Positions 2,427-19,714 of a stretch of DNA of 64,000 nucleotides are shown piece by piece. The notes beneath the pieces were generated by a model, which was not told the origin of the DNA, did no database searches, and was given only the letters and a program-made list of their open reading frames with translations. The stretch is taken from positions 4,128,001-4,192,000 of the forward strand of contig OZ252100.1 of the NCBI GenBank assembly GCA_965248435.1, in the 5' to 3' direction. Source of the stretch: Candidatus Latescibacterota bacterium (lineage in GTDB: Bacteria > Latescibacterota > UBA2968 > GCA-2709665). Position 1 is the first letter of the stretch. The number at the start of each line of letters is the position of its first letter. The position numbers and the translations under genes are program-made.

Positions 2427-2607
2427 CGGAGCACCCCCCAAACAGGAGGAGAAGGGGAAATGAAATCCGAGAGTACGGATTCGGGAGGAAACGGGCGGGC
2501 TGAGGGACGAATGATTCGACCGCCGGGGACGGTTACGGGACCCAAGTGGGCGGAGATATAGCGCATTTTTTCTGTTCAATCACAGTTGGCCAGCTGTGGA
2601 GGTAGCA

Positions 2608-2955: not shown

Positions 2956-2988
2956 AAGAAGTGTAATGCAACTGAACAGGTAGAGGAA

Positions 2989-3624: not shown

Positions 3625-3643
3625 ATTCAGTAAAGGATTCAAG

Positions 3644-5086
3644 ATGTCTTTAGAGCGCGATGACTTATCCCGTGTCGGTGGGATGTTGAAAACGCGCGAA
3701 GCCCGCGTGCTCACGTGGTCGCTTGGTGCACGGCTGGCTTTCTTCGCCATCTTCCTTGTGCTGTTGCTCCTGTATCTCCTCGGCTTAATTAGACCAGGTA
3801 TTGTCGCTGAGACCGACGTAGACGCGATCGCTTCGCTTTCTATCCTAGCTGTGGCAAGCTGCATCATTTCTTTGGGGTGTGTGCTCGCGAAACGCGAGCG
3901 GCATCTTCTCGCCGTCGGCATCGGCTCTGTCCTGCTCGATTTGGTCATGCTTGCCTTGCTACCGTTCATTTGGTACAAAGCTATGGACCTGCCTGATGGT
4001 TCTCCCGCTTTCCTCATGAAGAACGAGTTGGTTACGATCGGCATGGTCATGATAGCCGTCAACAGCTTGACGCTGAGGCCGATGTATCCAGCGATGATGG
4101 CCGCGGGTGTGATCGCAATTCATCTCGCGATCATGCAGTGGGTGCTCGGCGACCCACGGGTTACCGTCACGTCGCAATTCAGCGAGCATTTCTACACCTC
4201 CGCCGTAAATCCTGGCATCTTTGTTGTCCGTATGGTAATTCTGGCAATGGTCGGCGGAGCTCTGGCTTTCCTGGCGTGGTTCGCCAGGCGGCTGATCCAG
4301 GACGGGGTAGCGCTTGAAGTCTCCAACTTCGAGATCAAGGAACAGCAGGCACATCTCATCCATGAGGGCAAGATGGCCGCGGTGAGCGGACTGGTAGCGG
4401 GTGTTGCACATGAAGTCAACAATCCGCTCGGCGCGGTAAGGAGCAGTCTGGAGACTTCGCAAATAGGCGCTTCAAAGCTTGCAGGGGAATTGGCAGCTTC
4501 TTCACCTGGGTCAAAGATCGACAAGATCCTTAAGGTCATGAAGGACAGCAACAGAGTTGCACTCCAGGCCGTTGAAAGAATTTCTAATCTGGTTCGCTCG
4601 CTGAGGGATTTTTCCCGCCTCGACGAGGCCGAGGTTCAGCTTACTGATCTTCATGCAGATCTGGACACCGCCCTGTCGCTCATCGAGCCAGACGTAAAGG
4701 GAAAAGTGGAGGTCCTCAAGCAATATAGAGACATCCCTCAGATCAAGTGCAGGCCCAAGGAACTCAATCAAGTGTTCATGACGATCCTCCTCAACGCATT
4801 CGAGGCCATGGACGGAGCGGGAACGCTTCGTATCAGCACCGAAGCCGTTGATGGCCACATTGCAATCGAGATTTCGGACTCCGGGCCAGGGATACCGGAT
4901 GATCTACTGTCCAATCTGTTTGAAATCGGGTTTGCTGCCAGCAAGGGCAGGATATCGATGGGGCTGGGATTGCCCGTGGCACACAGGGTTGTAAAGCATC
5001 ACAACGGGGAACTATCGGTTCAGAGCATATTGGACCAGGGTACGTCTTTTAAGATATCATTGCCACTGAATGAGCTACCAGATTAG
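3644..5086 (+). CDS. Membrane sensor histidine kinase (NtrB-like transmitter)
   Basis: Several N-terminal TM helices; H-box AGVAHEVNNPL, N-box LNQVFMTILLNA, G-boxes DSGPGI and GLGL. Confidence 0.9.
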   Translation: MSLERDDLSRVGGMLKTREARVLTWSLGARLAFFAIFLVLLLLYLLGLIRPGIVAETDVDAIASLSILAVASCIISLGCVLAKRERHLLAVGIGSVLLDLVMLALLPFIWYKAMDLPDGSPAFLMKNELVTIGMVMIAVNSLTLRPMYPAMMAAGVIAIHLAIMQWVLGDPRVTVTSQFSEHFYTSAVNPGIFVVRMVILAMVGGALAFLAWFARRLIQDGVALEVSNFEIKEQQAHLIHEGKMAAVSGLVAGVAHEVNNPLGAVRSSLETSQIGASKLAGELAASSPGSKIDKILKVMKDSNRVALQAVERISNLVRSLRDFSRLDEAEVQLTDLHADLDTALSLIEPDVKGKVEVLKQYRDIPQIKCRPKELNQVFMTILLNAFEAMDGAGTLRISTEAVDGHIAIEISDSGPGIPDDLLSNLFEIGFAASKGRISMGLGLPVAHRVVKHHNGELSVQSILDQGTSFKISLPLNELPD

Positions 5087-5239
5087 TCCGTAAGCGCGCC
5101 CGCCATATGTACGGTCAAAGACGTTCAGACAGGCAAAACAACCAAACAGGATGAGTTATTCCGTTTTGGTAGAGTAAGGTGTTTACGAGCGTGCTGGCAA
5201 GAGACCAAACTGATACACGGGGCTGCGACTTTGTATAAC

Positions 5240-6259
5240 ATGCGAATGTGTGCCGGTCTGCTGGTGCTGCTCTTCCTGGCCCCTTTCGAACTGAAGGGGG
5301 AATCATTCCTCTTTGAATCCGCCAGGGTAAGCGTATGGCGCGCTCCGAGCTCCGGTTTCAGGGGTGCCCAGGAGATCAACGTCACCGCACTCAGGCTCGA
5401 GGGAAAAACCGTTGTTATCGACCCGGGGGTCGAGCGCTGGCGGGACGACCTTCTTTCAGTCTTTCCAGTCATAGACGAGATATGGATCACGCACGCGCAC
5501 CCCGACCACGCGGCCCTTTCGGGGATCCTCCAGGAAAAGTCAGGATCCAGGATCCTGTGCTCGGCCCAGGGCAAGGCGATTCTCGAGAATCCACGAGCCT
5601 TCCTGAAAGGAGAATTCGATGCCGCGGGCCCGCTCAAGGGAGATATATTTCCCTGGTATCTCAGGCCGTTCTCGCAGGCAGCGCTCAAGTTCGCATATGG
5701 GCCCTGGCCGCCCGCGAGCGTGGATGAGACATTCGATTCTGACGGAATGGTCCGCTATGGCGTGACGGTCCGGCATCTTCCCGGGCATACTGACGGATCT
5801 GTCGGCTTCTCTCTTCTTGAAGAGGGAAAGCGGGTGCTGGTCATCGGTGATTTATTTCAGCAGCGCGCCGTCGGCGACTTTGTTCTATCCATAAACCTCC
5901 CACGCGCAGATCTGGATAAGGCCCTCCGGTCGCTCGAGGAAATAAAGTCCTGGGGACCTGACATCACCATCCCCGCTCATGGAGCGCTGATGGAAGGGGC
6001 TGGCTTCATCTCGGATGGCATCGACCATACCATCTCGAAGTACAAGGCGTACCGAGAGAAGGTACGCGCCTTTCTTGTAGAAAGGGGTCGTCTGCCTTCG
6101 CTCGCATCCATTGCGCGTGAAGTCCCGTTCGAATGGCCTGACTCATACAATCCCGGCTTTACTCAGAAGCGATCGCTCGTCTTTGCCGTCTTGAAATCTC
6201 TCAGGAGAGAGGGGAGTCTGCCATCCCAGATCGCCGGGCGGATCTCCGTTCATCCATAG
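5240..6259 (+). CDS. Metallo-beta-lactamase fold hydrolase, possibly secreted
   Basis: THAHPDH, PGHTDG, GD and PAHG motifs; hydrophobic N-terminus. Confidence 0.85.
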   Translation: MRMCAGLLVLLFLAPFELKGESFLFESARVSVWRAPSSGFRGAQEINVTALRLEGKTVVIDPGVERWRDDLLSVFPVIDEIWITHAHPDHAALSGILQEKSGSRILCSAQGKAILENPRAFLKGEFDAAGPLKGDIFPWYLRPFSQAALKFAYGPWPPASVDETFDSDGMVRYGVTVRHLPGHTDGSVGFSLLEEGKRVLVIGDLFQQRAVGDFVLSINLPRADLDKALRSLEEIKSWGPDITIPAHGALMEGAGFISDGIDHTISKYKAYREKVRAFLVERGRLPSLASIAREVPFEWPDSYNPGFTQKRSLVFAVLKSLRREGSLPSQIAGRISVHP

Positions 6260-6325
6260 GCCGGGATCTGGGCTAAGCACCAAGAGGCGGTCAAGGTAAT
6301 TCGCCTAACCGGAAGGAGGACACTT

Positions 6326-6826
6326 ATGGCTTCAGAAGTCCTGGGACAGGACATGCTGAAGGTCGTGGTGAGCATAGCGCTCGGGATGCTCACCTACGGG
6401 CTGATCGCGCGATGGTATGTCATGCCGGCGCTGGCGACCCTTTCCCGCAACGATGCGCTGATCCCGCTCGTGCTTCCGCACGCGTTTCGGTATATCGGGC
6501 TGGCTTTTCTGATTCCTGGTGTCGTTTCAGCCGACGTGACGCACGATTTCGCGGTGCCGGCAGCCTATGGCGACCTTCTGGCGTCAGTTTTGGCGCTGCT
6601 CGCGGCTGTCGCACTCAAGTCGAGATGGTCGATCGCAGTTCCGGCAGTCTGGATCTTCAACCTTGAAGGAACTCTGGACGCGCTGTATGCCGTGTCACAG
6701 GGCGTCCAGCACGTGGATGCAGGCCAACTGGGCGGCGTGATCTTTATCCCTCTCCTGATCGTCCCGGCTCTGTTCGTGACCCACATTATGATCTTTCAGA
6801 TTCTGCTGAGGAGACCCGCGTCTTGA
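6326..6826 (+). CDS. Integral membrane protein of unknown function
   Basis: About 5 TM segments; GGAGG RBS; resembles 13855..14565 (H/Q-A-x-R, G/P-D, W-x-x-N-L pattern). Confidence 0.8.
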   Translation: MASEVLGQDMLKVVVSIALGMLTYGLIARWYVMPALATLSRNDALIPLVLPHAFRYIGLAFLIPGVVSADVTHDFAVPAAYGDLLASVLALLAAVALKSRWSIAVPAVWIFNLEGTLDALYAVSQGVQHVDAGQLGGVIFIPLLIVPALFVTHIMIFQILLRRPAS

Positions 6827-6865
6827 AACGCTGCTGGTGTGAGGGATGACGCATAACGCGGCAGG

Positions 6866-7291
6866 ATGAATATGAAGAGGCCGCCTCTACAGAGGATGCT
6901 CGAATTTGGGCTCTACGTTGACTACGTTGAGCGTGCGGCGGACTTCTACGCCCGCGTCTTTGGGTTTCGAGCTCTGATGTTGAATGAGCGGATTGGCGTG
7001 CTTGACGTGGAGGGTAAGCAGATCCTGCTCCTCTTCAAGCATGGGGCGTCGACCGAGCCGATGAAAGTGCCGGGGGGTGTGATACCGCCGCACGACGGCG
7101 AGGGGACGTCGCACATCGCGTTCGCCATCCAGGAGCGTGACGTCAGCCACTGGGAGGGCTGGCTGAGGGAGCAGGCGCTGGAGATCGAGAGCAAGGTGGC
7201 GTGGGAGGAGGGAGGCCAGAGCCTATATTTCCGGGACCTGGATGGGCATTTGCTAGAGCTCGCAACTCCCGGTGTTTGGGAGACCTACTGA
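6866..7291 (+). CDS. VOC / glyoxalase family protein
   Basis: LYVDYVERAADFY...HIAFAI...SLYFRDLDGHLLELA. Confidence 0.9.
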   Translation: MNMKRPPLQRMLEFGLYVDYVERAADFYARVFGFRALMLNERIGVLDVEGKQILLLFKHGASTEPMKVPGGVIPPHDGEGTSHIAFAIQERDVSHWEGWLREQALEIESKVAWEEGGQSLYFRDLDGHLLELATPGVWETY

Positions 7292-7317
7292 ACTAGCAAG
7301 GCCAACTAGGTGAACTC

Positions 7318-7372
7318 ATGAAGGCATACGTGGTCCGCAATGCGGGTCCACCGGGCGTACTGGAATTTACAG
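7318..7372 (+). pseudogene. N-terminal remnant of a zinc-binding dehydrogenase / quinone oxidoreductase (MDR family)
   Basis: MKAYVVRNAGPPGVLE resembles the MDR N-terminus MKAxxxxxxGGPEVL; similarity is lost immediately afterwards. Confidence 0.45.
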
Positions 7373-7417
7373 GAGTAACGAATTTTGTTTTCTTAAATCA
7401 TACCCGGAGGAATCAAA

Positions 7418-8431
7418 ATGAGCGAACAGCCAACACCAGAGAAAATCATGCAGGTTGGCCTGGGTTTTTGGGGTTCCAGAACACTACTGAGTGCCGTGGA
7501 GATGGGACTCTTTACCGAACTGGCCAGGCAAGGCGAAGATCTAAACGGACTTCAGCATCGGCTAGGATTGCATCCACGCTCCGCACGTGACTTCTTGGAT
7601 GCTTTGGTTGCAATGGGATTCCTAAGAAGAGTCGATGGGAAGTATCAGAATACGCCGGAAACAGATCTGTTTCTGGACAAGCAGAAACCCTCATACATAG
7701 GTGGAATGTTAGAGATGTCCAGTCACCGGCTCTTCGGGTTTTGGAATCATCTCACCGAAGCACTGCGCACCGGAGAGCCACAGAATGAGGCGAAGGGTGG
7801 GGGCGATTCCTTTTTTGCCACCTTGTACGCGGATCCAGATCGGCTTAAGGGATTCTTGGCGGCAATGACGGGTATCAGCCACGGGGCCAATCTTGCCATT
7901 GCTGGGAAGTTTTCCTGGAGCGACTATAAGACTTTTGCGGATGTGGGGACCGCACAGGGAGATCTTGGTGTTCAGGTTGCCCTCACGCACTCTCATTTGT
8001 CAGGTATCGGACTCGATCTACCTGGGGTAGCGCCCATTTTCGAGGAGTATGTCGAACAAAATGGTCTTTCGGAGCGTTTGCAGTTTGCCGCAGCCGATTT
8101 TTTCAAAGATTCTCTACCCCCGGTCGATGTCATCATGATGGGGCACATTCTTCACGATTGGAATCTGGAAGAGAAGAAGCTCCTCATCCAGAAGGCCTTC
8201 GACGCTATACCGGAAGGTGGCGCCTTCATTGTGTATGAGTCCATCATTGACGATGATCGATCTCAAAACGCCTTTGGACTTCTGATGAGTCTGAATATGC
8301 TCATCGAGACACCCGGTGGTTTTGATTATACGGGGGCCGACTGCGCGGGCTGGATGAAGGAAATTGGATTCCAAAAAACCTGGGTTGAACCTTTGGTAGG
8401 ACCGGACTCTATGGTCATAGGAGTCAAATAG
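7418..8431 (+). CDS. SAM-dependent O-methyltransferase (Methyltransf_2 family with dimerisation domain)
   Basis: [10 protein letters not shown] and GHILHDW motifs; GGAGG RBS. Confidence 0.9.
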
Positions 8432-8569
8432 TCAGCGTTTCAATTTCAGGTCATTCAGCGAAGCAAGGATCTTGTCGTGCGACCGCACGCAGGATCAGCA
8501 AGACCACGCCTTTTATAAGACTTTGTGTTTTATGGGCTTATAATAAATTTCTACACGCGTAGAAATTTA

Positions 8570-8700
8570 GGCTGGACGACCGGTACCAGCCGGATCTGTT
8601 CTACCTGCTGGAGAACAGGACAGTGAGGTGGTGCTCAGGGAGGGCCGGTTTCTGAACCGCGAGCTCGTGGAGGCGGGATCGGCCAGGCGAGTTTGGGAGC
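8570..8700 (+). pseudogene. Degraded thermonuclease (SNase) fragment
   Basis: DDRYQR and GRFLNRELVEAGSA pieces resemble SNase DRYGR.../FLNxELVxxGxA; no intact ORF. Confidence 0.4.
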
Positions 8701-8713
8701 CCCACTTACACAC

Positions 8714-8742
8714 TTGACCTGCAATCATCGAATCGGTAAACT
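8714..8742 (+). promoter_or_regulatory. Sigma70-like promoter of PhyH copy 1
   Basis: TTGACC-17-TAAACT; homologous to the promoter at 9719. Confidence 0.6.
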
Positions 8743-8789
8743 TCAGCGATAAAGAATCCGAAAGCAGGGCCCGAAAGAGGAGAACTCCC

Positions 8790-9614
8790 ATGCTAACAGA
8801 CCTGGAAGTCGGACAGTTCCGCGCCTTCGGCTATGTCGTCCTGAAGGACTGCCTGGATGTGGACGAGCTGCAGGGAGTTCAGGACGCGTTCGACCGCGTA
8901 ACCGAGCGTGCGCCGGACTTTGAAGAGTTCGGCCCGTCCGGGACCCGGAGGTCGACATCGTTTATGGAAGAGGAGGGGGCGCTGGCGGCGCTGATCGAAC
9001 ACCCGAAGATCATGGAGGCGATGCGGGACATCGACGGGACCGAGTTCCTCTACATAGGCAACGGCGACCTGACGGCGAACATGGATGAGGTCTACTGGCA
9101 CACCGACGGCTGCCCCAGCATGCAGCCGATGACGGTGAAGACCGTCTTCTACCTCAGTGGGACGCCCGACGGCGAGGGGGCGCTGAACATCATCCCGGGG
9201 AGCTTTCACCCCGATTTCAGCGCCGCGCTCTACCGGTCGTATGCGCCGCTCGGGGAGGAGTACCGCAGGCGATCGCACAATCCGGATCCGAGCACCCGGG
9301 AGAACGTTCCCGGCATGGTCCAGGTCCTCGCGAACCCGTGCGACGTGGTGATCTGGGACAACCGGATGTGGCATTCGGCCTGGAAGCGGCGGGATGGGAA
9401 GCCGCGGCGGAATATCTTCTTCAGCTACGTGCGCGACCCGCTGGATGACCCGATCCGCGGGCGGGAGGCCCGGGAGCACATAGACAGATACCGTTCGGGC
9501 CCGAGCCGCCGATTCGTCTACAGCAAGAAATTGATGGAGGAAGGCGGCCCCGCGCGTGAGATGATGGCGAAGCGGCTGGAGGAGCTGGGGGTTGAAAACG
9601 TGCGGGAAGGATAA
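8790..9614 (+). CDS. Phytanoyl-CoA dioxygenase (PhyH) family Fe(II)/2OG dioxygenase, copy 1
   Basis: FRAFGYVVL, WHTD (HxD), GALNIIPGSF, WHSA, RR. Confidence 0.9.
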   Translation: MLTDLEVGQFRAFGYVVLKDCLDVDELQGVQDAFDRVTERAPDFEEFGPSGTRRSTSFMEEEGALAALIEHPKIMEAMRDIDGTEFLYIGNGDLTANMDEVYWHTDGCPSMQPMTVKTVFYLSGTPDGEGALNIIPGSFHPDFSAALYRSYAPLGEEYRRRSHNPDPSTRENVPGMVQVLANPCDVVIWDNRMWHSAWKRRDGKPRRNIFFSYVRDPLDDPIRGREAREHIDRYRSGPSRRFVYSKKLMEEGGPAREMMAKRLEELGVENVREG

Positions 9615-9643
9615 ACCAGACCTAAAAGACGTCACCCAAACAG

Positions 9644-9690
9644 AGAAGACCCCGTCCTGATTCAGCGAGATCAGGGCGGGTTCTTATTTG
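9644..9690 (+). terminator. CCCCGTCCTGA...TCAGGGCGGG hairpin (repeat family copy 1)
   Basis: GC stem plus T-rich tail after the stop codon. Confidence 0.7.
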
Positions 9691-9718
9691 GTGGGACGGG
9701 GAAGCGCTATGTACTCAC

Positions 9719-9747
9719 TTGACGTGTCATCACTAAATCGTTACTCT
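9719..9747 (+). promoter_or_regulatory. Sigma70-like promoter of PhyH copy 2
   Basis: TTGACG-17-TACTCT. Confidence 0.6.
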
Positions 9748-9793
9748 TCAGCGAAGGAAGGCGAGAAGCAGTACCAAAGAGAGGGCAAATCCA

Positions 9794-10614
9794 ATGTTGA
9801 ATGACCTGGAAGTCGGACAGTTCCGCGCCTTCGGCTATGTCGTCCTAAAGGACTGCCTGGATGCGGACGAGCTGCAGGAAGTTCAGGAGGCGTTCGACCG
9901 CGTAACCGAGCGCGCACCGGACTTTGACAACTTCGGCCCGTCCGGGACCCGGAGGTCGATATCGTTCACGGAAGAGGAGGAGGTGCTGGGGGCGCTGATC
10001 GAACAGCCCAGGATCATGGAGGCGATGCGGGACATCGACGGGACCGAGTTCCTCTACATAGGCAACGCCGACCTGACGGCGAACATGGATGAGGTCTACT
10101 GGCACACCGACGGCAACCCCAGCATGCAGCCCATGACGGTGAAGACCGTGTTCTACCTCAGTGGGACGCCCGACGGCGAGGGGGCGCTGAACATCATCCC
10201 GGGGAGCTTTCACCCCGATTTCAGCGCCGCGCTCTACCGGTCCTACGCGCCGCTCGGGGAGGAGTACCGCAGGCGATCACACCGTCCGGATTCGAACACC
10301 CGGGAAAACGTTCCCGGCGTGGTCCAGGTCCTCGCGAACCCGGGCGACGTGGTGATCTGGGACAACCGGCTGTGGCATTCCGCGTGGAAGCGCAAGGACG
10401 GGAAGCCGCGGCGGAATATCTTCTACAACTATGTGCGGGACCCGCTGGGTGACCCGGTTCGCGGGCGCGAGGTGCGGGAGCACGTGGCGTATTACCGTTC
10501 GGACCCTCACCGTTCGTCTACAGCAAAAAGATGATGGAGGCCGGCGGCCCCGCGCGCGGGAAGATGGCGGCACGGCTGGAGTCGCTGGGCGTGGAAAACG
10601 TGCGAGAGGGATAA
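9794..10614 (+). CDS. PhyH family dioxygenase copy 2, frameshifted near 10510 (in-frame stop at 10534)
   Basis: Close paralog of 8790..9614; the homologous tail FVYSKKMMEAGGPARGKMAARLESLGVENVREG* continues in another frame to TAA 10614. Confidence 0.85.
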
Positions 10615-10644
10615 ACGGCGCATCCACAGTGACGTCGCACAAAT

Positions 10645-10691
10645 GAAGAGGCCCCGTCCTGACTAAGAGAATCAGGGCGGGGCTTTTGTTT
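10645..10691 (+). terminator. CCCCGTCCTGA hairpin (repeat family copy 2)
   Basis: gccccgtcctga-ctaagagaa-tcagggcggggc-ttttgttt. Confidence 0.7.
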
Positions 10692-10768
10692 GGGATCGTG
10701 CTGGCAGGAAGATTGCAGGTCTAGTGGGGCATAGCCGATAGCTCGGGGGGATCATACTCAAGAGGATC

Positions 10769-10843
10769 TAACCAGACAAAAAAAGTCACGCCAACGAAGA
10801 GACCCCGTCCTGATGCACTCGAATCAAGGCGGGGTTTCTTCTT
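10769..10843 (+). repeat. CCCCGTCCTGA hairpin (copy 3), orphan, with leader similar to copy 1
   Basis: aaccagac...gtcac...gaagagaccccgtcctga...tcaaggcggggtttctt. Confidence 0.65.
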
Positions 10844-11032
10844 GCAACTCTCAAGGGGTCGGGGCAACGGATGAACGCCCCGTTCAAAACACAGCATCGG
10901 TTTGAACAGGATGAATGGAGACATTAGTGCTTCCGAAAGACAGAATGACCTCTCTCGTCTACTGTGGCGCAATATCTTACAAGAACAAAACGGCCAACGG
11001 CATGAGAATTGCGAATCTGGAGGACCCAGCCC

Positions 11033-11061
11033 TTGACTTGTAACTAATAAATGGTTATATT
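11033..11061 (+). promoter_or_regulatory. TA operon promoter with palindromic operator
   Basis: TTGACT-17-TATATT; TAAC-N9-GTTA between the hexamers; ATG 4 nt after the -10. Confidence 0.65.
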
Positions 11062-11065
11062 AGAG

Positions 11066-11329
11066 ATGTATGAGGTTGTAATCAAGCGGAAAATCCTCAG
11101 GAATATTCAGAGATTACCTATTCCGATCCAGAGGAGATTGGCGAACCTGGTCGAAGACTTACGGGACGGAGGACCATTTAGAAAAGACTGGCCCAACTAT
11201 GGAAAACTCGGAACGGATGACTATCACTGCCACCTTGCTCATAGGTGGGTGGCTTGTTGGTATTGTGAAAGCAACTCAAACATAATTGAGATGTATTATG
11301 CAGGCAGTCGTGAAGACGCCCCGTATTGA
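11066..11329 (+). CDS. RelE/HigB-like type II toxin
   Basis: 87-aa basic protein with YEVVI...LP...YHCHL...WVACW...YAGSRE pattern, upstream of an HTH gene. Confidence 0.7.
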   Translation: MYEVVIKRKILRNIQRLPIPIQRRLANLVEDLRDGGPFRKDWPNYGKLGTDDYHCHLAHRWVACWYCESNSNIIEMYYAGSREDAPY

Positions 11330-11660
11330 GATCCACATCAAAGGAGATATTCCCAAGAAGCTCCTTTCTGTGCTTGAACAGGAATATGGGCAACAGGTCC
11401 AATTCATCGATGACGAAGAGACCGTGGATATCTTTCAGACCGATTGGTACCGACAAACAAAATCAAAGATGACGCCGGGCGACAACTTGAAGATCTACCG
11501 CACCAACAACGAATTGACGCAGGCGCGGTTGGGTGAGATGCTTGGGGGGCTACCGCGCCAGCACATTTCGAACATGGAGGCGGGCGCGAGATCTATCAGT
11601 TTGAAGATGGCACGGAAACTGTCAGAGATATTCAAGGTTTCGCCTGAGAAGTTCATCTAG
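11298..11660 (+). CDS. HigA-like XRE-family HTH antitoxin
   Basis: C-terminal HTH LTQARLGEMLG...HISNMEAGARSIS; overlaps the toxin by 32 nt. Confidence 0.8.
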   Translation: MQAVVKTPRIEIHIKGDIPKKLLSVLEQEYGQQVQFIDDEETVDIFQTDWYRQTKSKMTPGDNLKIYRTNNELTQARLGEMLGGLPRQHISNMEAGARSISLKMARKLSEIFKVSPEKFI

Positions 11661-11683
11661 AATAGACACAGACTCAAGATCTC

Positions 11684-11727
11684 GCCCCGTCCTGATCCAC
11701 TCGAATCAGGGCGGGGTTTCTTGTTTG
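11684..11727 (+). terminator. CCCCGTCCTGA hairpin (copy 4)
   Basis: gccccgtcctgat-ccactcga-atcagggcgggg-tttcttgttt. Confidence 0.7.
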
Positions 11728-11890
11728 GCCACAACCTTCGAACGCCGGTGTTGTGTGGTTGTGGGAACGGAATGTATATTGGAATATTGCTTTGCTGACG
11801 ATGTCAGCTGGAATGTCCCGAATTGTTCGAATCGCGCCCGAGCAGGATAACTCGGGGTGGGTCACCACTTCAGTCAAAGGAGGTACAACC

Positions 11891-12553
11891 GTGGCAGATG
11901 AAAAACGTGTGGCTGGGTATGACGATCCGGTTCAGGAGCCTGAAGAACTCATCCTGAAGACGCTTGAGTACCGGATGCCTTTTAATTACCGGAATGTGAC
12001 GGTCCATCGTCAATATCATGGTGGGGAGGTACACGGCGTCGAGCTCTTCCCCATCAATACAGATACGAAAGGGAGTTCCGGTCTGCCGCCGGAATTCATC
12101 GAAGTCGAGGAACAGCACCCGATCGTCCGCGTGGCCGTCATCGGCAGCGCGTGCACCCCGCCCGGATGGATTCAAATCGAGGCTGACCCGGTGGAAGGCT
12201 TTAGGGGGGAGAGAGAGAGCCCTGAAGTCATGCCGGTTCGCTTTCGCGCAGACAATCTCTGGGGCATGCACTTCAGGTATGACAGCTGGAAGGCCAAGGG
12301 CAGCAGCCAGATCGACCCCGTCAAGGGAGCAGAACATTACCCCGATTCACTCCCTGGTGGCACCAAACCCAAGCTGATCAGCCGCGAGCTGCCCCTCACG
12401 GGGATGAGCTGCGCGATTTTCGAGATTCCGCCATCTGACCGCGTCCGGATTACGGGGGGAGGCCAGATTCCCGCGTGGACGGCCGACAACTTTCCCGACG
12501 ATGTTCACTATTCGTTCCGCATGATTCGTACTACGCTCTCCGTTAAAGCATAG
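11891..12553 (+). CDS. Hypothetical protein (220 aa)
   Basis: GGAGG 7 nt before GTG; followed by a terminator. Confidence 0.7.
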   Translation: MADEKRVAGYDDPVQEPEELILKTLEYRMPFNYRNVTVHRQYHGGEVHGVELFPINTDTKGSSGLPPEFIEVEEQHPIVRVAVIGSACTPPGWIQIEADPVEGFRGERESPEVMPVRFRADNLWGMHFRYDSWKAKGSSQIDPVKGAEHYPDSLPGGTKPKLISRELPLTGMSCAIFEIPPSDRVRITGGGQIPAWTADNFPDDVHYSFRMIRTTLSVKA

Positions 12554-12604
12554 CCCGGAGCTGGCGCCGGGTGAAATGCGAATGTGGGCGTCACTCAACA
12601 ATAC

Positions 12605-12646
12605 GCCCCGTCCTGACAGCAAGAAGTCGGGACGGGGTTTTTGTTT
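12605..12646 (+). terminator. CCCCGTCCTGA hairpin (copy 5)
   Basis: ccccgtcctgac-agcaagaa-gtcgggacgggg-tttttgttt. Confidence 0.7.
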
Positions 12647-12828
12647 GGAGGTCGCGAGAGGTCAGGAGACCGTTGGAAATTCCGTTCACATCGCGGCGTC
12701 TCATTGATCGGGATGATTCGGAAGGACCGACGTGAATCTCGAAGCTCGTGATGGCTGATTCTTTGCCTCGCTTTACCCGGGCGTAGCGGAAGGCCTCATC
12801 GAAATCACTCGGGATTCTGGCAAGGAGG

Positions 12829-13461
12829 TTGCTGACTACCCACGGCATGGGTAGACCTGCGACCGGAGGTGGAGCGTTGAATGATCTCGGTGACGTCCAG
12901 GGTGAGATCGGTTTCCATCACGTGAGTCTCTATGAAGGTGATCGGACGATCCTGGAAGATGTGCATCTGACGATTCCGGCTCACTCCACTGTTGCAATCG
13001 TCGGAAAAAGGGCCTCCGGGAAGGTCGCACTGACCAGGCTGATACAAAGGTTTCGTGATCCGTGCGAGGGAACCATCACGATCGACGGCGCTGACGTCAG
13101 AACGATCTGCCTCGAGTACCTGAGGCAGATCGTTTGCACGGAGACGCTGAAAGGCGGTTCATTCCAGGGGAGTGTTTCGCACGGTTTGAAGTTGAACACA
13201 CCGATCTTGATTCTCGAAGAAGCGGTCGCCGAGCTGGACTCTCGATCTGAATTTTACATTCAGGAGATGTTGAAGCGGATGACACGGGGGAGAACGGCGT
13301 TGATGATCGCGCGCCGGCCCTCCACGATCCGATCGGCCGATGAGGTAATCGTTCTGGAAGCGGGAAAGATGGTGGAGCAGGGGCCTCCACAGCTTCTCGA
13401 GGCGCTTGGAGGGAGCTTTGCGGACCTGATGGGCGAACTCGATGGTTCAGTTGTCGCGTAA
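12829..13461 (+). pseudogene. Degenerate MsbA-type ABC ATPase domain, no membrane domain
   Basis: Walker A GKRASGKV, LSGGQ signature deleted, Walker B ILILEEA, H-loop IARR. Confidence 0.7.
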
Positions 13462-13796
13462 TTCATCATCGGTGAAATAGAGTTCATTTCCGTCCGGGTC
13501 GGCTACGACCATGACCTTCATTCCCCATTGTGTAAACGACACTTCAGCGCCTGAAGACCTGAACTCGTCCTCTAACCCATTTACTCGACCCGAATCGAGG
13601 GACATAAAGATCCGCCCCTTTCCCGATTTCTGGACATCCTTGTTCAAGATGAGTTCTAAACCCTCTCGATCGACCTGCGCTGCACCATCTTCGTGCTTCC
13701 ACTCTCTGAAAACCCCAGTCGTTCGTAAAAATCGATCGACTTCTCGACATCATCCACGAAGAAGACCGTCCTGTGGTACCAAAGCGAACTTCCCAC
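13447..13796 (-). pseudogene. VOC/glyoxalase gene with a single frameshift near 13703
   Basis: AGGAGG then GTG 13796: VGSSLWYHRTVFFVDDVEKSIDFYERLGF; continues in another frame WKHEDGAAQVDREGLELIL...WGMKVMVVADPDGNELYF. Confidence 0.75.
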
Positions 13797-13830
13797 GCGT
13801 TGTCCTCCTGTGAGTGATTCGACGGTTTTG

Positions 13831-13853
13831 CGAGATACGAGATACGAGATACG
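13831..13853. repeat. (CGAGATA)3 heptamer tandem repeat
   Basis: Direct reading. Confidence 0.85.
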
Positions 13854-13854
13854 C

Positions 13855-14565
13855 TTAGGATGCGGCCGCGGCGGGCGACTCGAAGCCCTCTTCGTATATC
13901 CTCCAGGCCAGAAGCAGATTCAGGCAGATGGAGATGGGCACGACGATGCTCGGCGCCAGGATCATCGGGAACTCGAACATGAATTCGAAGCCCGGTTCGT
14001 TCATCCAGTGATTCATGCCGACAATCAGCGGCAGGAGGATGATGGCGGCGCCGAGCAGGTTCCAGATCGCGAGGAAGCGCCGGCCCACGGCATCCCTCAC
14101 CATCATCCACGCGAGGACGAGGGCGGATATGCCGTAGAGAAAGTCCGGGATGCCGACCACGAACACGAACTTGGACGTGACCTCGCCGCGGAACCCTTTC
14201 ATCACGCCGCCGATCGCCCCGATGCGCAGGGCCTGGAAAAGGACCAGCCAGTGCCACGGCGTGTACGCGGCGATGCCGCGCAGACCGCTTCGGAGCGGCC
14301 GCGAAACGACCAGGCCGACGACCAGCAGGACGATTGCCACGTTGGCCTGCCACAGCAGCGGGATCCGCTCCATCAACGCGACGTGCATCCCTTTGATCCC
14401 CATCACGAACGCGACCACCGTCCAGGCGAAAAACGCCAGCAGCAGGGCATAGACGTTGATCGCTTCCGCGAGGCTGATCGACTGATTCCGCTTCGCCCTG
14501 TGGGTGATCCAAATACAGAAGGCGAAGTTGATCAGGACGAAGATCGGAACGATCGAGAATTTCAT
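13855..14565 (-). CDS. Integral membrane protein of unknown function
   Basis: About 7 TM segments; GGAGG RBS. Confidence 0.8.
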   Translation of the reverse strand: MKFSIVPIFVLINFAFCIWITHRAKRNQSISLAEAINVYALLLAFFAWTVVAFVMGIKGMHVALMERIPLLWQANVAIVLLVVGLVVSRPLRSGLRGIAAYTPWHWLVLFQALRIGAIGGVMKGFRGEVTSKFVFVVGIPDFLYGISALVLAWMMVRDAVGRRFLAIWNLLGAAIILLPLIVGMNHWMNEPGFEFMFEFPMILAPSIVVPISICLNLLLAWRIYEEGFESPAAAAS

Positions 14566-14617
14566 AGTGAACGCCTCCTTTTGCGTCCTTCACACCGTAT
14601 CAACAAAATTTATCCGA

Positions 14618-14654
14618 CGAGATACGCTTAACGAGATACGAGATACGAGATACG
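14618..14654. repeat. CGAGATA heptamer repeats (1 + 3 units)
   Basis: Direct reading. Confidence 0.85.
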
Positions 14655-14658
14655 CTCT

Positions 14659-15450
14659 TTACCAGATCGTCCAGCCGCCGTCGACGACGAGGTTGTGACC
14701 GGTGATCCAGTCTCCGGCCTTCGAGGCGAGGAGACCCACGGCCCCCTTCAGGTGCTCCGGCCTGCCGTGGACCTGGAGCGCGTTGAGCAGTCGGTAGCGC
14801 TCGGCCTGTTTCGGGTCCATATCCGGCTTCAGGATCTGTCCGGGGCTGATGCAGTTGGCCGTGATGCCGTGCGAGCCGAGCTCGGCGGCGAGCGCGCGCG
14901 TGAGGTTGATGACGGCGCCCTTCGCGGCCTGGTAGGGGGGACCCGACCGGGGTTTCATGTCCAGGCCTTCGTACATCCGGAGGTCGGCCGTCGTAAACCC
15001 GTGGATCGAACCGATCGTGATGATCTTGCCGGATCGCTGGGGGATCATCACGCGGGCCGCGGCCTGGGCGCACATGTAGATGCTCTTGACGTTCGTCTCC
15101 CATGTCAGCGTGAACTCTTCGATCGAGGCGTCCGGGATGTAGGTGGTCGTGGCGCTTCCGCCGGCGTTGCAGACGACGATGTCCAGCTGACCTTTTTGGG
15201 CGACGACGGTGTCGATCAGGGCATCGACCTGGGCTTCGTCGGTGACGTCGCAGCCGAGTCCGGTGCAGTCGATCCCGGCCTCCTGCAGCTCGCCGGCGAC
15301 CTGTTCGCAGAGGGCCTTACGCCGGCTCGCGATGTACACGACGGCGCCAAGCTCACCGAGAGCGGTGGCCATGGCCGTGCCGAGATGGGTGCCCCCGCCG
15401 GTGACGATGGCGACTTTGCCTGTTAGGTCGAAGAGTTCCTGGACAGTCAT
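14659..15450 (-). CDS. SDR family oxidoreductase (gluconate 5-dehydrogenase-like)
   Basis: TGGGTHLG, NAG, YQAAK, ITGHNLVVDGG. Confidence 0.92.
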   Translation of the reverse strand: MTVQELFDLTGKVAIVTGGGTHLGTAMATALGELGAVVYIASRRKALCEQVAGELQEAGIDCTGLGCDVTDEAQVDALIDTVVAQKGQLDIVVCNAGGSATTTYIPDASIEEFTLTWETNVKSIYMCAQAAARVMIPQRSGKIITIGSIHGFTTADLRMYEGLDMKPRSGPPYQAAKGAVINLTRALAAELGSHGITANCISPGQILKPDMDPKQAERYRLLNALQVHGRPEHLKGAVGLLASKAGDWITGHNLVVDGGWTIW

Positions 15451-15543
15451 CTATTACCTCCACAAAAGATACGAGGTCTCACCGCGGAGGCGCAGAGAAC
15501 GCGGAGAGAGAATCGAATGATGAATATCGAAGCCGATCCCGGT

Positions 15544-15735
15544 CCCTCGATACACCCGTGAGCCTTTTCCTAGGTGAAAACTGTTTATCTCACGGAGCGG
15601 GCACTCGGGAACTCGGGACTTCCGTATCAGGTGTTGAGCATAACGAATCAGTGTTGAATCACCCAGAGGCAAAACCCCCGAATCCCCGAGTGCGGCGCTG
15701 AGGAGGGTTCTGAATCACGCGCCGTGTATCGAGGG
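15544..15735. repeat. Inverted-pair palindromic element (CCCGAGTGC...GTGTATCGAGGG arms)
   Basis: ccctcgatacac...gcactcggg (15544-15609) mirrors cccgagtgc...gtgtatcgaggg (15685-15735). Confidence 0.65.
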
Positions 15736-15821
15736 GTCGGGCCCCAGGGAGCAGGCACGAAAAAGCACCTGCGAATATAATACACAGGTGCCAACTCACC
15801 TTGCCCAATGACTTGCCGACG

Positions 15822-16433
15822 CTATCCCTGGGTGGCCAGTGTCTGCTTCAGTCCGCTCAACAGGTCAACGACTTTGTCGATCTCCTCCTTCGGCGCCATG
15901 TCCCTGTATCTCGTGAAGGCTTCGACGGCGCGGCCGAACTCTTCGTTCAGGGCGTGGACCAGGCCCAGGTTGAACTGGGTGTTCGGATATCCGGGATGGA
16001 TCTCCGCCGCGATTTCGTAGTGCACGCGCGCGAGCGCGAGGTCACCCGTCTCGAAGTACTGGTTTGCGAGGTTGTAGTGGGTTTCGAAGTGGCGGGGGTT
16101 GGCCTTCAGGGATTTGGTGAAGCAGTCGAAGGCCTTGGCCGTCCTGCCCTGCTGGGATTCCAGGATGCCCAGGTTGCAGAAGGCATCGGCCACGCAGTCC
16201 CCTTCTGAGATCGCGGTCAAGTAGGCGTCGGCGGCCTTCGGGTCTCCCCGCTCGTCAAGCAGCAGGGCCTCCTCGAAGCGCCCGATCGTTCTGGGAAGTT
16301 CGAGGACATTTCCAGACGACGTGGAGAAGAGGTCGAGCTGATCGGGATCGAAACGCTTCCGCTTGCGCTTCTTGACACGCTTGAACCCGAACTTGGCCGG
16401 GGGCTTTCCCGGAAAGGCGATCACATTGGCCAC
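15822..16433 (-). CDS. Tetratricopeptide repeat protein with basic N-terminus and QLDLF motif
   Basis: TPR consensus AFCNLG, THYNLA, TQFNLG; 32 nt downstream of ku. Confidence 0.85.
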   Translation of the reverse strand: MANVIAFPGKPPAKFGFKRVKKRKRKRFDPDQLDLFSTSSGNVLELPRTIGRFEEALLLDERGDPKAADAYLTAISEGDCVADAFCNLGILESQQGRTAKAFDCFTKSLKANPRHFETHYNLANQYFETGDLALARVHYEIAAEIHPGYPNTQFNLGLVHALNEEFGRAVEAFTRYRDMAPKEEIDKVVDLLSGLKQTLATQG

Positions 16434-16465
16434 ACTCTTTTACCTCAGGACGAAGTCGTGTAACC

Positions 16466-17347
16466 TCAGGCGGCTTTTCGCTTTTTGGCCTTGGCCGTGG
16501 TCTTGGTCTTCTTCGCCTTCTTGGCCTTCTTCGTTTGGGCTCGGGCCTTTCCGGTGGCCTTCTTCATCGGCTTCCGATCGGCCTTGGCCTGCTCGATGCT
16601 GTCCTTGAGGGCGGTCATAATGTCCACGACCGGTGCGAGCTCCTCGGCGACGGTCACGATTTCCCTGCCCTCGACCTTGGCCTCCACCATCTCCTTCACG
16701 GCCTGTCGGTAGTTGTCCTTCAGCTCGATCTTGTCCAGGGATGTGGACATCGAGTCGACGAGACTCTGGGCCATCTTCAGCTGTTGGGCGTCCGCCGCTT
16801 CACCGTCCAGTTGAGGTACGTCGGCGATGTTTCGCACCATCTCGGGCGTGCGGAGCTTGTAAAGGATCAGTCCGTTTTCCTCCGGGCCGATCATGACGAT
16901 CTCTTCCCGGTCTCGGAGCACGACCTTGCCGATGCCCAGCTTTCCGCTCTGTCTCAGGGCCTCGCCGAGGAGGGCATAGGCCTTCGCCGCGACGTCGCCG
17001 TCGGGCCCGGCGAAATAGGGGGTCTCATACAGGGTCGGGTGGACTTCCGAGGCGTCCACGAACCCCTCGATCTCGATGATCTTCGTGCTTTTGAGTTTGA
17101 TCTTTTCGAGGTCTTCCGCTTCGACGATCACGAACTGCTCCGGCTCGTACTGGTAGCCCTTGACGATCTCCTCCTTGTCGAGCACCTTGCTGCACTTCTT
17201 ACACTTCTTGTCATATCCGATCGGACCGTTGCACTCCTTGTGCAGCTGGTTGAATCGGATGGTCTGGGCTGTGTCCACGGCGTTGTAGATGCGGATGGGG
17301 ATCGTGACCAGGGAGAAACGGATGTGGCCTTTCCAGATTGCTCGCAT
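16466..17347 (-). CDS. ku: Non-homologous end joining protein Ku
   Basis: MRAIWKGHIRFSLVTIP, EIVKGYQY, Lys-rich C-terminal tail. Confidence 0.96.
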   Translation of the reverse strand: MRAIWKGHIRFSLVTIPIRIYNAVDTAQTIRFNQLHKECNGPIGYDKKCKKCSKVLDKEEIVKGYQYEPEQFVIVEAEDLEKIKLKSTKIIEIEGFVDASEVHPTLYETPYFAGPDGDVAAKAYALLGEALRQSGKLGIGKVVLRDREEIVMIGPEENGLILYKLRTPEMVRNIADVPQLDGEAADAQQLKMAQSLVDSMSTSLDKIELKDNYRQAVKEMVEAKVEGREIVTVAEELAPVVDIMTALKDSIEQAKADRKPMKKATGKARAQTKKAKKAKKTKTTAKAKKRKAA

Positions 17348-17386
17348 GCTTTACCTCCGCGTCGGGTCTGGGTGTGACGTTTCGAT

Positions 17387-19714
17387 TCAGGCCGTCAGAT
17401 CGGGACGGAGCCGCACGAAGACCGGCTCGCGCAGCGTCCCGTTGGGTGTGAACGAGGCGTACTGGACCTCGCACAGCAGTTCAGGTTTCAGCCATGTCGT
17501 CTGGGCGTCGTCGACCGGTCTTTCCTTCACGGGACGTTTTCCCGGGGGGACCTTCTTGAGTTCTTTCAGCACGGTCTTGAGCATCCGATCGTCGAAGCCG
17601 GTCCCGACCTTGCCCAGATACTTCAGCCCGTCCCCGTTCCCCTGTGCAAGATGCAGCGCCCCGAATCCGGACCGGCGATCTCCCTTGCCTTCCGTGTAGC
17701 CGATGATCATACACTCGGTCGTCTGCCTGGCCTTTACCTTGAGCCACGAAGCGGACCGCCTGCCGGGCAGGTAATGACTGTCGGACTGTTTGGCCATGAT
17801 GCCCTCGAGGCCCATCTTCTTGGCCGCCTCGAAGAGGTCATTCCCTTCGTCCACGGCCTCGCTGACGCGATAGGTCTCGTTCCTGCGGACGGCATCGGTC
17901 ATCCACTCGCGCCGCACCGTCAGGGGTTCGCTGACGATGGGCCGCCCGTCCAGGTAGAGGCAGTCGAACAGGTAGCAGACGGCGGGGTGCTTTGCGCTCG
18001 CGCGCGTAATCGCGCCCTCGCTCGTGGGATGGAGGCGGCCCACCGCGTGATGGAAGATCGGCCGGCCGCCTTCCTCGAGGCAGACGATCTCGGCGTCGAA
18101 AAGCGCGGAGGAGGCCCTGAAGGCCTGCTCGGGAATCAGCAGCTCCGGGAAGTATTTGGTGATGTCCCGCTGGCTGCGGCTTCTGATCCTCATTTCCCCT
18201 TCGTCGATCGCGATCATGGCCCGTATGCCGTCCCACTTGACTTCATACAGATATTCGGGTCCATCAGGCGGCTCGTCCTGGGTCTCCGCCAGCATGGGAT
18301 CGATCGGCTCGACGAGCCAGTCCACCTGAAGCGGATCGACGCGCTCCAGCAGACATTCCTTGTTCCGGGTGTTGATCAGCCGGTATTCACCGGTGACGCC
18401 CTCACCGTAGAGCCGAAAATAGAAACTGTCTTTCTTCTGCTTCGTGATTTCGTAGGTCCCGTGTCCGAAGATCCACATCCGGCCGCCGCCGTACTGGCCT
18501 TTCGGGATCGTGCCGTCGAAGGCGAGGTATTCGATCGGGTGGTCTTCCACGGAGACTGCCAGGCGCTTGATTCCCGGCCGGGGGGGGAGCCCCTTCGGAA
18601 CGGCCCACGACCTCAGTGCGCCCTCGTGTTCGAGCCGCAGGTCGTAGTGGAGCCTGGAGGCGTGATGGCGATGGATGACGAACGCATTTCCATCTCCCCC
18701 GATCTCGGCAGGAACGGGCTCGGGTGTCTTGCCGAAGTTCCGCTTCTGTCTGTACGCCTCGAGGTCCTCGGGTGACTTGAAGGTCGGGGACGGCCCGACC
18801 TGCCTCCTGGACTTTTTCGTCTGCTTCCGCTCGGTGTGGAGGTCCACGGCGTAGGCGTTGAATCCTTCCCAGGCATCCCCCTCAGAGCGAACGTGGTCCC
18901 TAACGGTGCGGATGTTGAAGACCTTCGGGTCGTCGACGCCGCTCAACTGCTCCCACTGGAGCGGCATCGAGATCGGGGCCGACACGGCGCCTCGAACGCT
19001 GTAGGGTGAAACGATCGTCTGGTAGTGACGGTTCCGGTAGATGTCGACGAGCACCTTTCCGCCACGTGCGTCTTTCTTGATGCGGAGGGTGGTCGACGAC
19101 CCGTGCGCGTCCACGAACGGCCGGGCGACATCCGCGGCGGCATCCGCGACCTGATCGAAGCTCCACCTGGGCTGGATCGGGCAGAGGATGTGCACGCCCT
19201 TTCGGCCGGTCGTCTTGACGAAGGGATGGTATCCGAACCCTTCGACGTGTTCCTTGAGGTCGATGGCCAGGCCGACCACTTCCTCGAATGGGAAATCTTC
19301 CGGGGGATCCAGGTCGAAGACGACGTAGTCCGGCTTGTCGTAGTGCGGCTTGTGAGAGTGCATCTGGTGCAGTTCAAGACAGGCCAGGTTTGCGACCCAG
19401 ACGAGGGTGGCCTCTTCGGAGGCGAGGATGTAGTCGATCTTGTCTTCTTCACCCAGTGCGACGTGCTGAACCCACTCGGGGGCCCAGTCCGGCCGGTTTT
19501 TCTGAAAGAATCGCCCACCCGTGATCCCATCCGGGTAGCGGACGAAGGAAAGGGGCCGGCCGTAGAGGTGCGAGAGGATCGTCGGCGCGATTTCCAGATA
19601 GTACTCGATGAGCTCGGCTTTGAGAAACCCGTCTCCGGGGAAGAGGACCTTATTCAGGTTCGAAAGCTCGATTTTGCGCTTTCCGACACTGGCTAATTGT
19701 GACGTTCTGGCCAT
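17387..19714 (-). CDS. ligD: NHEJ DNA ligase D (polymerase-phosphoesterase-ligase order)
   Basis: Primase-polymerase RYPDG/FDLDP/KTTGRKGVH; PE domain HHASRLHYDLRLE; ligase EVKWDG, EGIMAK, WLKVK. Confidence 0.96.
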   Translation of the reverse strand: MARTSQLASVGKRKIELSNLNKVLFPGDGFLKAELIEYYLEIAPTILSHLYGRPLSFVRYPDGITGGRFFQKNRPDWAPEWVQHVALGEEDKIDYILASEEATLVWVANLACLELHQMHSHKPHYDKPDYVVFDLDPPEDFPFEEVVGLAIDLKEHVEGFGYHPFVKTTGRKGVHILCPIQPRWSFDQVADAAADVARPFVDAHGSSTTLRIKKDARGGKVLVDIYRNRHYQTIVSPYSVRGAVSAPISMPLQWEQLSGVDDPKVFNIRTVRDHVRSEGDAWEGFNAYAVDLHTERKQTKKSRRQVGPSPTFKSPEDLEAYRQKRNFGKTPEPVPAEIGGDGNAFVIHRHHASRLHYDLRLEHEGALRSWAVPKGLPPRPGIKRLAVSVEDHPIEYLAFDGTIPKGQYGGGRMWIFGHGTYEITKQKKDSFYFRLYGEGVTGEYRLINTRNKECLLERVDPLQVDWLVEPIDPMLAETQDEPPDGPEYLYEVKWDGIRAMIAIDEGEMRIRSRSQRDITKYFPELLIPEQAFRASSALFDAEIVCLEEGGRPIFHHAVGRLHPTSEGAITRASAKHPAVCYLFDCLYLDGRPIVSEPLTVRREWMTDAVRRNETYRVSEAVDEGNDLFEAAKKMGLEGIMAKQSDSHYLPGRRSASWLKVKARQTTECMIIGYTEGKGDRRSGFGALHLAQGNGDGLKYLGKVGTGFDDRMLKTVLKELKKVPPGKRPVKERPVDDAQTTWLKPELLCEVQYASFTPNGTLREPVFVRLRPDLTA

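Follow-up and report, generated by a model that had tools for sequence, protein, structure and literature searches.

The attC sites of integrons are described, in part of PMC3053210, by a 3' GTTRRRY box (R'), a 5' RYYYAAC box (R'') and an imperfect palindrome of 57-141 bp. Two or more such sites without a nearby intI define a cluster of attC sites that has no integron integrase (CALIN), and passages of PMC4889954, the source of this definition, describe CALINs as frequent and mostly without intI pseudogenes. Group IIC introns, for which terminator and attC hairpins are similar targets, have been proposed, according to a section of PMC3001079, to join genes to attC sites. We analysed a 64,000-nt stretch of a Candidatus Latescibacterota genome (contig OZ252100.1, positions 4,128,001 to 4,192,000; hereafter the window), in which a family of short hairpins punctuates an accessory region gene by gene, much as in a cassette array. 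Comparison with a genome of the same genus suggests that these repeats are probably copies of one Rho-independent, originally bidirectional, terminator of a gene of the phytanoyl-CoA dioxygenase (PhyH) family. The window copies are denoted e1-e5, a copy before the window e0 and a decayed copy e(-1). The elements and the PhyH genes among them are as follows, in window coordinates.

8636-8700, + strand: e(-1), decayed copy upstream of the PhyH1 promoter region, which aligns with e1 when the PhyH1 and PhyH2 units are aligned
8790-9614, + strand: PhyH1, a 274-aa phytanoyl-CoA dioxygenase family protein (Pfam PF05721, E 1.7e-7)
9626-9702, + strand: e1, with PhyH-type leader, hairpin and T-rich tail (72.9 bits; DNA fold -18.8 kcal/mol, z -4.97)
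9794-10616, + strand: PhyH2, tandem paralogue of PhyH1 (Pfam PF05721, E 1.3e-11; 85% aa identity to PhyH1)
10630-10704, + strand: e2, with PhyH-type leader, hairpin and T-rich tail (75.4 bits)
10763-10802, + strand: PhyH3 remnant, comprising last codons, stop and leader in the 3' untranslated region (UTR), which aligns with 9608-9646 (score 30, 0/2000 shuffles)
10779-10853, + strand: e3, hairpin with one C.A mismatch and the tail end CTTGCAA (80.6 bits)
11662-11738, + strand: e4, with an unrelated leader, hairpin and the tail TTTCTTGTTTGG (71.3 bits)
12586-12660, + strand: e5, hairpin with the tail TTTTTGTTTGG (63.9 bits)

A single pattern, CCCGTCCTGA-N4-14-TCRRGRCGGG, matches the window five times, always on the + strand (9651-9680, 10653-10681, 10804-10833, 11686-11715 and 12607-12636), against 0 of 100 dinucleotide shuffles, so that the five-copy family proposed in the initial annotation is real. 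The stems of e1-e5 span 9650-9680, 10652-10682, 10803-10834, 11685-11716 and 12606-12637 on the same strand. Copies do lie 3' of PhyH1, PhyH2, a putative toxin-antitoxin (TA) pair and a gene of 220 aa, as had been described, with stop-to-stem distances of 35, 35, 24 and 52 nt, respectively. The statement that no copy occurs elsewhere in the window holds for the pattern, which has no further match, but has to be amended for the decayed copy e(-1), at which neither the pattern nor the covariance model gives a match. When one mismatch was allowed in the 11-mer arm, the only extra matches in the window were the opposite arms of the elements themselves and two sites unrelated to them.

Genome-wide (5.67 Mb), the strict pattern occurs at the five window sites only (5/5 in the locus), with none on the reverse strand and none for a reversed control, and looser regular expressions added no copies. 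An nhmmer profile of e1-e5 recovered e0 at G000:C1:4125301-4125356, 2.7 kb before the window start (35.6 bits), with the following match at E 0.13. By covariance model, built with e0 included, this copy lies at G000:C1:4125283-4125360 and scores 68.7 bits; the six-copy model gives its own copies 63.9-80.6 bits and the next unrelated genome site 22 bits. All copies are confined to 15 kb of the genome in a single orientation. A common dispersed terminator or a repetitive extragenic palindrome (REP), which the initial annotation said would speak against its proposal, is not what we found: there are six intact copies, in 15 kb of one genome.

Outside this genome the family is scarce. The strict pattern is present in 0 of 100 relatives, while weak covariance-model matches (24-38 bits) occur in 22 of 60; those that were aligned proved to be AT-rich generic terminators, one per genome, and were rejected as family members. 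Scans of sequence collections for the hairpin matched at least 119 genome stretches and at least 120 metagenome stretches, with ~95 matches expected by chance in 596 Gb by our own arithmetic. Nearly all of these were single hairpins from unrelated phyla and were discarded as relatives; the one true relative among the collection matches listed is a metagenome contig, L141, which carries two full copies (63 and 58 bits). Rfam returned no match, the single sub-threshold hit being to a miRNA (22 bits against a cut-off of 70).

Each copy consists of an 11-bp GC-rich stem, the 5' arm of which is invariant in 6/6 copies, a loop of 8-10 nt that differs between copies, and a tail of the type TTTYTTGTTTGG. 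All changes in the 3' arm are G/A transitions, three of five of which retain the + strand pair as G.T or A-T. In a 17-pair consensus, 8 pairs are identical in all six copies, and each of the 12 pairs of the hairpin proper is present in at least five. The + strand folds better than the - strand in 5/5 copies with flanks and in 5/6 cores, because G.T wobbles on the + strand are C.A mismatches on the other. As in intrinsic terminators, a GC-rich hairpin leads directly into a T-rich tract, 24-52 nt after + strand stop codons. Over the first 20 kb of the window, e5, e4 and e1 take the first three places among terminator-like sites and are the three of five copies that a simple terminator scan lists; e2 and e3, which it omits, carry a mismatch or have loops of greater length.

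In e1, e2 and e5 the leader also pairs with sequence after the tail, extending the palindrome to ~65-70 nt, while only ~50 nt pair in e3 and e4. This pairing gives the elements their attC-like look; the complementarity itself is the A-tract/T-tract symmetry of a bidirectional terminator. The GTCRC-x-CAA leader that had been ascribed to most copies is common to e1, e2 and e3 (mutual p 0.009-0.03), marginal in e5 (p 0.025, against e1 only) and unrelated in e4 and e0. Tails of several pairs are alike beyond composition (for example, e4-e5, p 0.0004). What e4, e5 and e0 share with the family is only a ~45-nt core of stem, loop, stem and tail.

The origin of the element is suggested by G001, the closest genome compared and a member of the same genus. 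Its TPR-Ku-LigD block is 81% identical to window positions 15824-19862, and a single PhyH gene, with 79% DNA identity to PhyH2 (9766-10612), lies 108 bp from this convergent block; window 10617-15800 has no counterpart between PhyH and TPR-Ku-LigD in G001. Exactly inside the 108-bp gap is a weak covariance-model match (24.8 bits); from one convergent gene to the other, the gap passes through an A-rich stretch, then a hairpin, then a T-run. When the gap was aligned with individual elements, the score was reached by none of 3000 shuffles for e1, e3 and e0, by 1 for e2 and by 7 for e4. The best match is e3 (score 43), and the homology takes in the leader 'GACGT..C..CCAA', beyond the palindrome. 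As a homologous leader, hairpin arm and T-tail stand at the syntenic G001 PhyH, the element appears to be PhyH's own terminator and 3' UTR, probably bidirectional in origin. In the window genome, by contrast with G001, ~5 kb of accessory and decaying DNA lies between the PhyH terminator and the TPR gene. Each copy would serve as terminator of the preceding + strand gene, with stems kept paired while loops drift.

Local multiplication of this terminator can be followed in the PhyH genes themselves. The PhyH1 unit (8636-9616) and the PhyH2 unit (9641-10616) align over the preceding element, promoter region, gene and next element, and by inspection, an unquantified comparison, their non-coding parts have changed far more than the coding part. 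The stem arms of e1 and e2 are identical and their loops different. The PhyH2 frame is broken near 10500, where the alignment of the two units has small indels: the open reading frame (ORF) 9794-10534 stops early and the C-terminal part is in another frame. The copy described as lacking a gene (10769-10843) is without an intact one, but the PhyH3 remnant, a PhyH 3' end, precedes it. A contig of run X10 (organism B) has the PhyH 3' end intact (87.5% like PhyH2), then 15 other letters, and then e3 and the TA unit (97% alike). Tandem duplication of a promoter-PhyH-terminator unit, with later deletion of the third PhyH body, explains e(-1), e1, e2 and e3, given the aligned PhyH units, the remnant before e3 and the leader common to e1-e3. 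The edge of the PhyH3 deletion, at ~10763, falls inside the gene end rather than at the repeat, which does not support the initial proposal. The ~45-nt hairpin-plus-tail core may also have been copied behind the TA pair (e4), the 220-aa gene (e5) and a block with a CMD-family gene (e0), by some illegitimate or duplication-linked process.

In at least one instance, recombination between copies explains why close relatives differ in gene content. On its reverse strand, L141 is 95.6% identical to window 11685-13218; upstream of this it has one hairpin, preceded by a leader of the PhyH type and a PhyH 3' end (79% to PhyH1/2), and it lacks the TA unit. The TA unit is also absent, with the same join, from X1 record 7, an independent contig of 5257 nt at depth 28, in which a PhyH part (9789-10617) is followed by 31 other letters spelling a PhyH-type leader and then by 11685-14499 with 137 other letters. 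Both contigs pass from the PhyH-type leader directly into the e4 stem, skipping 1067 nt, and continue at 95-96% identity. Their single element combines an e3-type leader with the same stem, loop and tail as e4; e3 differs from it at 2 of the 38 positions that run from the stem to TTTCTT inclusive, and further on in the tail. The window assembly over 10249-14500 was confirmed with 0 differences by X6 record 26, from a source-like run. The TA module does lie between the most similar copies, as first noted: e3 and e4 agree at 38/44 positions (stem-loop-stem and a further 12 nt), while the pairs that rank next reach 38/46.

Of the proposal that units were acquired through recombination at the repeat, what stands is an indel of the TA unit plus one hairpin with its junction inside the hairpin (L141 and X1); an integron-like site-specific route is not supported. 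Being direct repeats, the copies would lend themselves to homologous recombination or to slippage during replication. For the arrangement without the TA unit, the simplest reading is an e3/e4 deletion with crossover in the shared 5' arm (first 12 stem nt), which would need no extra changes. Run X4 has a joint from 12648 to 10874 (an e5-like tail, then the TA left flank) that hints at another unit order or a circle; it occurs in a single contig at depth 2.5 and was set aside as too weak to use. Runs X1-X5 have a low share and are uninformative on habitat.

The copy e0 ends a block, composed of a 123-aa ORF and the CMD-family gene, that is placed after an SDR gene 12 kb upstream. In G001, the SDR homologue is followed by ~176 bp and then by a homologue of the DNA after e0. 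Homology between the two genomes ends at the SDR stop codon and restarts 18 nt past the e0 stem, at ACGCGAATGGGCGCC. The motif CACGCG after the e0 tail is also found in the flank of the G001 PhyH terminator, and the junction suggests that e0 may have been set in place by an illegitimate join at short microhomology. The left end of the CMD block, at L252:12462-12520 (G000:C1:4124462-4124520), directly follows the SDR stop codon and reads AAAACCCCGGGG, then a short GATTGCG-like tandem repeat.

The interval from SDR2 to TPR is hypervariable between the two genomes and holds many small accessory enzymes, among them GNAT, glyoxalase, MBL-fold, O-methyltransferase, PhyH and CMD proteins, together with decaying genes. 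Window 1-8431 and L252:7831-13268 form a + strand run of such genes, comprising GDPD, two distant PhyH paralogues, an ankyrin protein, SDR, CMD, two GNATs, two glyoxalase-fold proteins, an MBL-fold protein and an O-methyltransferase. This run is almost wholly absent at the syntenic place in G001, which marks the region as a plasticity zone of ~29 kb against ~4 kb.

Several observations weigh against descent of all copies from the PhyH terminator by duplication and recombination. Duplication of PhyH units does not account for the core behind the TA, 220-aa and CMD blocks, which are unrelated. G001 has no element copy at the site of the e0 block, and recombination with a resident copy therefore cannot explain e0. 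The match of e5 to the G001 gap is marginal (68/3000 shuffles), and the e0 core is the exception to the strand bias, its more stable fold being on the - strand. Tests for a PhyH coding remnant gave null levels before e5 (594 and 1031/2000 shuffles) and e4 (1239/2000), and thus do not show that an older array had its PhyH bodies replaced. Insertion of the TA unit into a one-copy ancestor, or a crossover at another point, would need just 2 differences, which ~4% divergence alone yields; for the TA indel, a deletion with its crossover in the 5' arm is thus only the simplest reading. Other candidate traces of PhyH units were also rejected. A PhyH promoter or 5' UTR upstream of the 220-aa gene was at null level (784 and 196/2000 shuffles), and one upstream of the TA unit (46/2000) is probably promoter-like convergence. 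The e5 leader was not supported as a native 3' UTR of the 220-aa gene by comparison with the unlinked G001 homologue (366/3000).

The most obvious alternative is that the hairpins are attC-type sites of a CALIN, with the PhyH, empty, TA and 220-aa units as cassettes and the integron integrase that moved them lost or acting in trans. The layout invites this reading: sites confined to one locus and one strand punctuate genes 150-1000 bp apart, e1, e2 and e5 fold as ~70-nt imperfect palindromes, a TA unit with its own promoter-like site stands beside an 'empty' unit, and relatives differ in whether they have the TA unit. Integron integrases score above cut-off in 10 of 100 relatives, including G004 of the same family, and the lineage can evidently host integrons. 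Five sites on one strand in 3 kb without intI count toward a CALIN, however, only if the sites are attC, which their other features do not support. The genome lacks an integron integrase: TIGR02249 reaches 104 bits at best against a cut-off of 265 bits and has no match within 4.11-4.15 Mb, and its best matches are six identical 314-aa recombinases without model positions 176-237. Within 35 nt after the stem, GTTRRRY occurs in 0/6 elements; GTTT is present in four (GTTTGG in e2, e4 and e5; GTTTCT in e0), and the other two lack GTT. Within 35 nt before the stem, RYYYAAC occurs in one of six (e5, ACTCAAC). Minimum-energy predictions for the bottom strand give symmetric C.A mismatches and internal loops, with no two extrahelical bases on the same side, whereas the top strand is more stable and alone carries the T-tail. 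Moreover, the element is orthologous to the terminator of the single syntenic PhyH in G001, a PhyH remnant precedes e3, and the TA junction is most simply placed in the 5' arm rather than between the G and TT of a core site. With no integrase, core boxes absent and a vertical origin from the PhyH terminator, the integron-like mechanism is not supported, and we regard the CALIN reading as very unlikely. The same low standing applies to a terminator hairpin that has itself become the recombination site of an integrase-less or trans-served array, in which genes become linked to copies of the resident bidirectional terminator and are then gained, lost or moved together with the hairpin; if true, the locus would be a living example of a possible route from terminators to attC-type cassettes. 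The flanks of the G004 intI gave no clean attC array by repeat finding or a crude box-plus-fold scan, and were left unused as a control.

Somewhat less improbable, though still unlikely in our judgement, is that foreign blocks were inserted at or beside a resident terminator and that insertion duplicated the ~45-nt hairpin-plus-tail, leaving a copy on each side, by way of a long target duplication, staggered breaks around the extruded hairpin and end-joining repair. In e4, e5 and e0, shared sequence does run from the stem base to 6-18 nt past the stem; e3 and e4 have only 2 differences from the stem through TTTCTT and flank low-GC DNA (47.7%); the TA-less relative has exactly one copy; and Ku and LigD genes are present in the window. 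The right junction of the e0 block, where ACGCG/CACGCG is common to the G001 PhyH terminator flank and the G001 empty site, is a possible microhomology join. On the other hand, G001 has no hairpin at the e0 site to duplicate, and e4 and e5 have loops that disagree at most positions, which makes such a duplication, if any, old. In the X4 contig (single, depth 2.5) the TA unit also follows a family member, suggesting an older adjacency, and we know of no bacterial insertion mechanism that yields ~45-bp target duplications. Transposition of a small non-autonomous mobile repeat into intergenic regions, of the REP or bacterial interspersed mosaic element (BIME), miniature inverted-repeat transposable element (MITE) or palindrome-associated transposable element (PATE) type, would account for a short palindromic intergenic repeat behind unrelated genes. 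This explanation is close to refuted: there are only six intact copies, within 15 kb and in one orientation, and none in 100 relatives; alignments showed no flanking target duplications or terminal inverted repeats by eye; and homology to the PhyH 3' UTR reaches past the palindrome.

The remaining genes between and after the hairpins are listed below.

10850-11684, + strand: TA-like unit (47.7% GC against 58.4% in the window)
11066-11329, + strand: 87-aa RelE/ParE-like ORF, with no Pfam, NCBIfam or PDB match
11298-11660, + strand: 120-aa Xre-HTH ORF, the putative antitoxin (HTH_3, E 4.2e-12)
11891-12553, + strand: 220-aa ORF, with no Pfam or NCBIfam family
12829-13461, + strand: ABC exporter ATPase-domain fragment, matching C-terminal parts of MsbA-type models only, far below cut-offs

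The two genes of the TA-like unit overlap by 32 nt and are preceded by a promoter-like site (11033-11061, 10/12 matches). The nearest Atlas clusters of the 87-aa ORF, as language-model neighbours, are annotated 'cytotoxic translational repressor' and RelE/ParE (0.98), and HigA-type models match the antitoxin ORF below their cut-offs in every case. Homologues of the unit lie at unlinked places in G001, G002, G003, G007 and G004. The 220-aa ORF has an 85% DNA homologue at an unlinked G001 locus with limits 11874-12557, and the same limits recur in a 10-kb X10 contig. The ABC ATPase fragment is probably a pseudogene that marks decaying DNA downstream of the array. Window 12829-14650 contains this fragment and ORFs without a family match, and differs from the 95%-identical X1 contig by 1-nt and 6-7-nt indels at 12904, 13240, 13579, 13590, 13831, 14217 and 14409, the first two being 1-nt indels within the fragment; several such small indels are what DNA without a function would be expected to show. 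Between the O-methyltransferase gene and the PhyH1 unit, the 360-bp gap holds a perfect palindrome, AAATTTCTAC-N4-GTAGAAATTT (8520-8570), that may be an operator or a terminator remnant.

By our own criteria the genome has ~710 strong terminator-like hairpins, which form few small sequence families, the PhyH family being the largest single-strand one. A second family lies at G000:C1:5158163, 5160384, 5170559 and 5179030, with the stem GGGTTACGTC...GACGTAACCC and a T-run. Each of its copies stands immediately after a tRNA-like 3' end (T-arm, acceptor strand, CCA), and ~35 shared nt come after it; ARAGORN found no intact tRNA or tmRNA in 5155001-5182000. A gene for a 314-aa tyrosine recombinase (5171594-5172388) lies ~1 kb from one copy, and the family resembles the repeated att sites of tandemly integrated elements. 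A third small family (G000:C1:120771, 128998 and 132528) has terminator stems GGGTTACGG, with two of three copies after tRNA-Arg(ccg) and tRNA-Pro(ggg). Identical or near-identical 314-aa recombinase ORFs occur six times, at G000:C1:1448658-1449452, 2071970-2072764, 3850047-3850841, 4651479-4652273, 4843434-4844228 and 5171594-5172388. They match the flanks of the integron-integrase model (104 and 89-93 bits) without its middle segment, and are probably a multicopy mobile element.

The locus offers a worked example of an integron-looking array traced to the locally multiplied terminator of one gene, and is useful as a warning when cassettes or CALINs are called. It also indicates that, in a chromosomal plasticity zone, the limits of gained or lost genes can be marked by terminator repeats of 45-75 nt. 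If the transfer of the core behind three unrelated blocks proved to happen regularly, it would be relevant to how integron cassettes arose, a question still unsolved.

Among described systems, attC arrays and CALINs resemble the locus in their locus-confined, same-strand imperfect palindromes at gene 3' ends, a TA and an empty unit and variable content; the locus departs from them in having no IntI, no GTTRRRY and no extrahelical bases, and in its T-tail, top-strand bias and descent from a resident terminator. Unlike group IIC intron systems, the locus gave neither an intron nor a reverse transcriptase in the set of annotated ORFs. Att repeats at tRNA 3' ends are similar in that the same genome has a locus-confined hairpin family at 5.158-5.179 Mb, but units at the PhyH locus are shorter than 1 kb, with no recombinase and no tRNA in the surrounding 26 kb. 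The locus resembles repeat-mediated deletion and unequal crossing-over in tandem gene arrays in that tandem PhyH paralogues each have a promoter region and a terminator and the TA unit, between two direct repeats, is missing from relatives; it differs in that its repeats measure just 45-75 nt and some of them flank non-paralogous genes. The presence of one sequence behind unrelated genes in one locus sets the family apart from the usual intrinsic terminators, whereas the element itself is like an intrinsic bidirectional terminator in its anatomy (a GC-rich stem, a short loop and a T/U-rich tail), in its distance of 24-52 nt from the preceding stop codon, in the A-rich stretch upstream and in the position of its G001 homologue between convergent genes.

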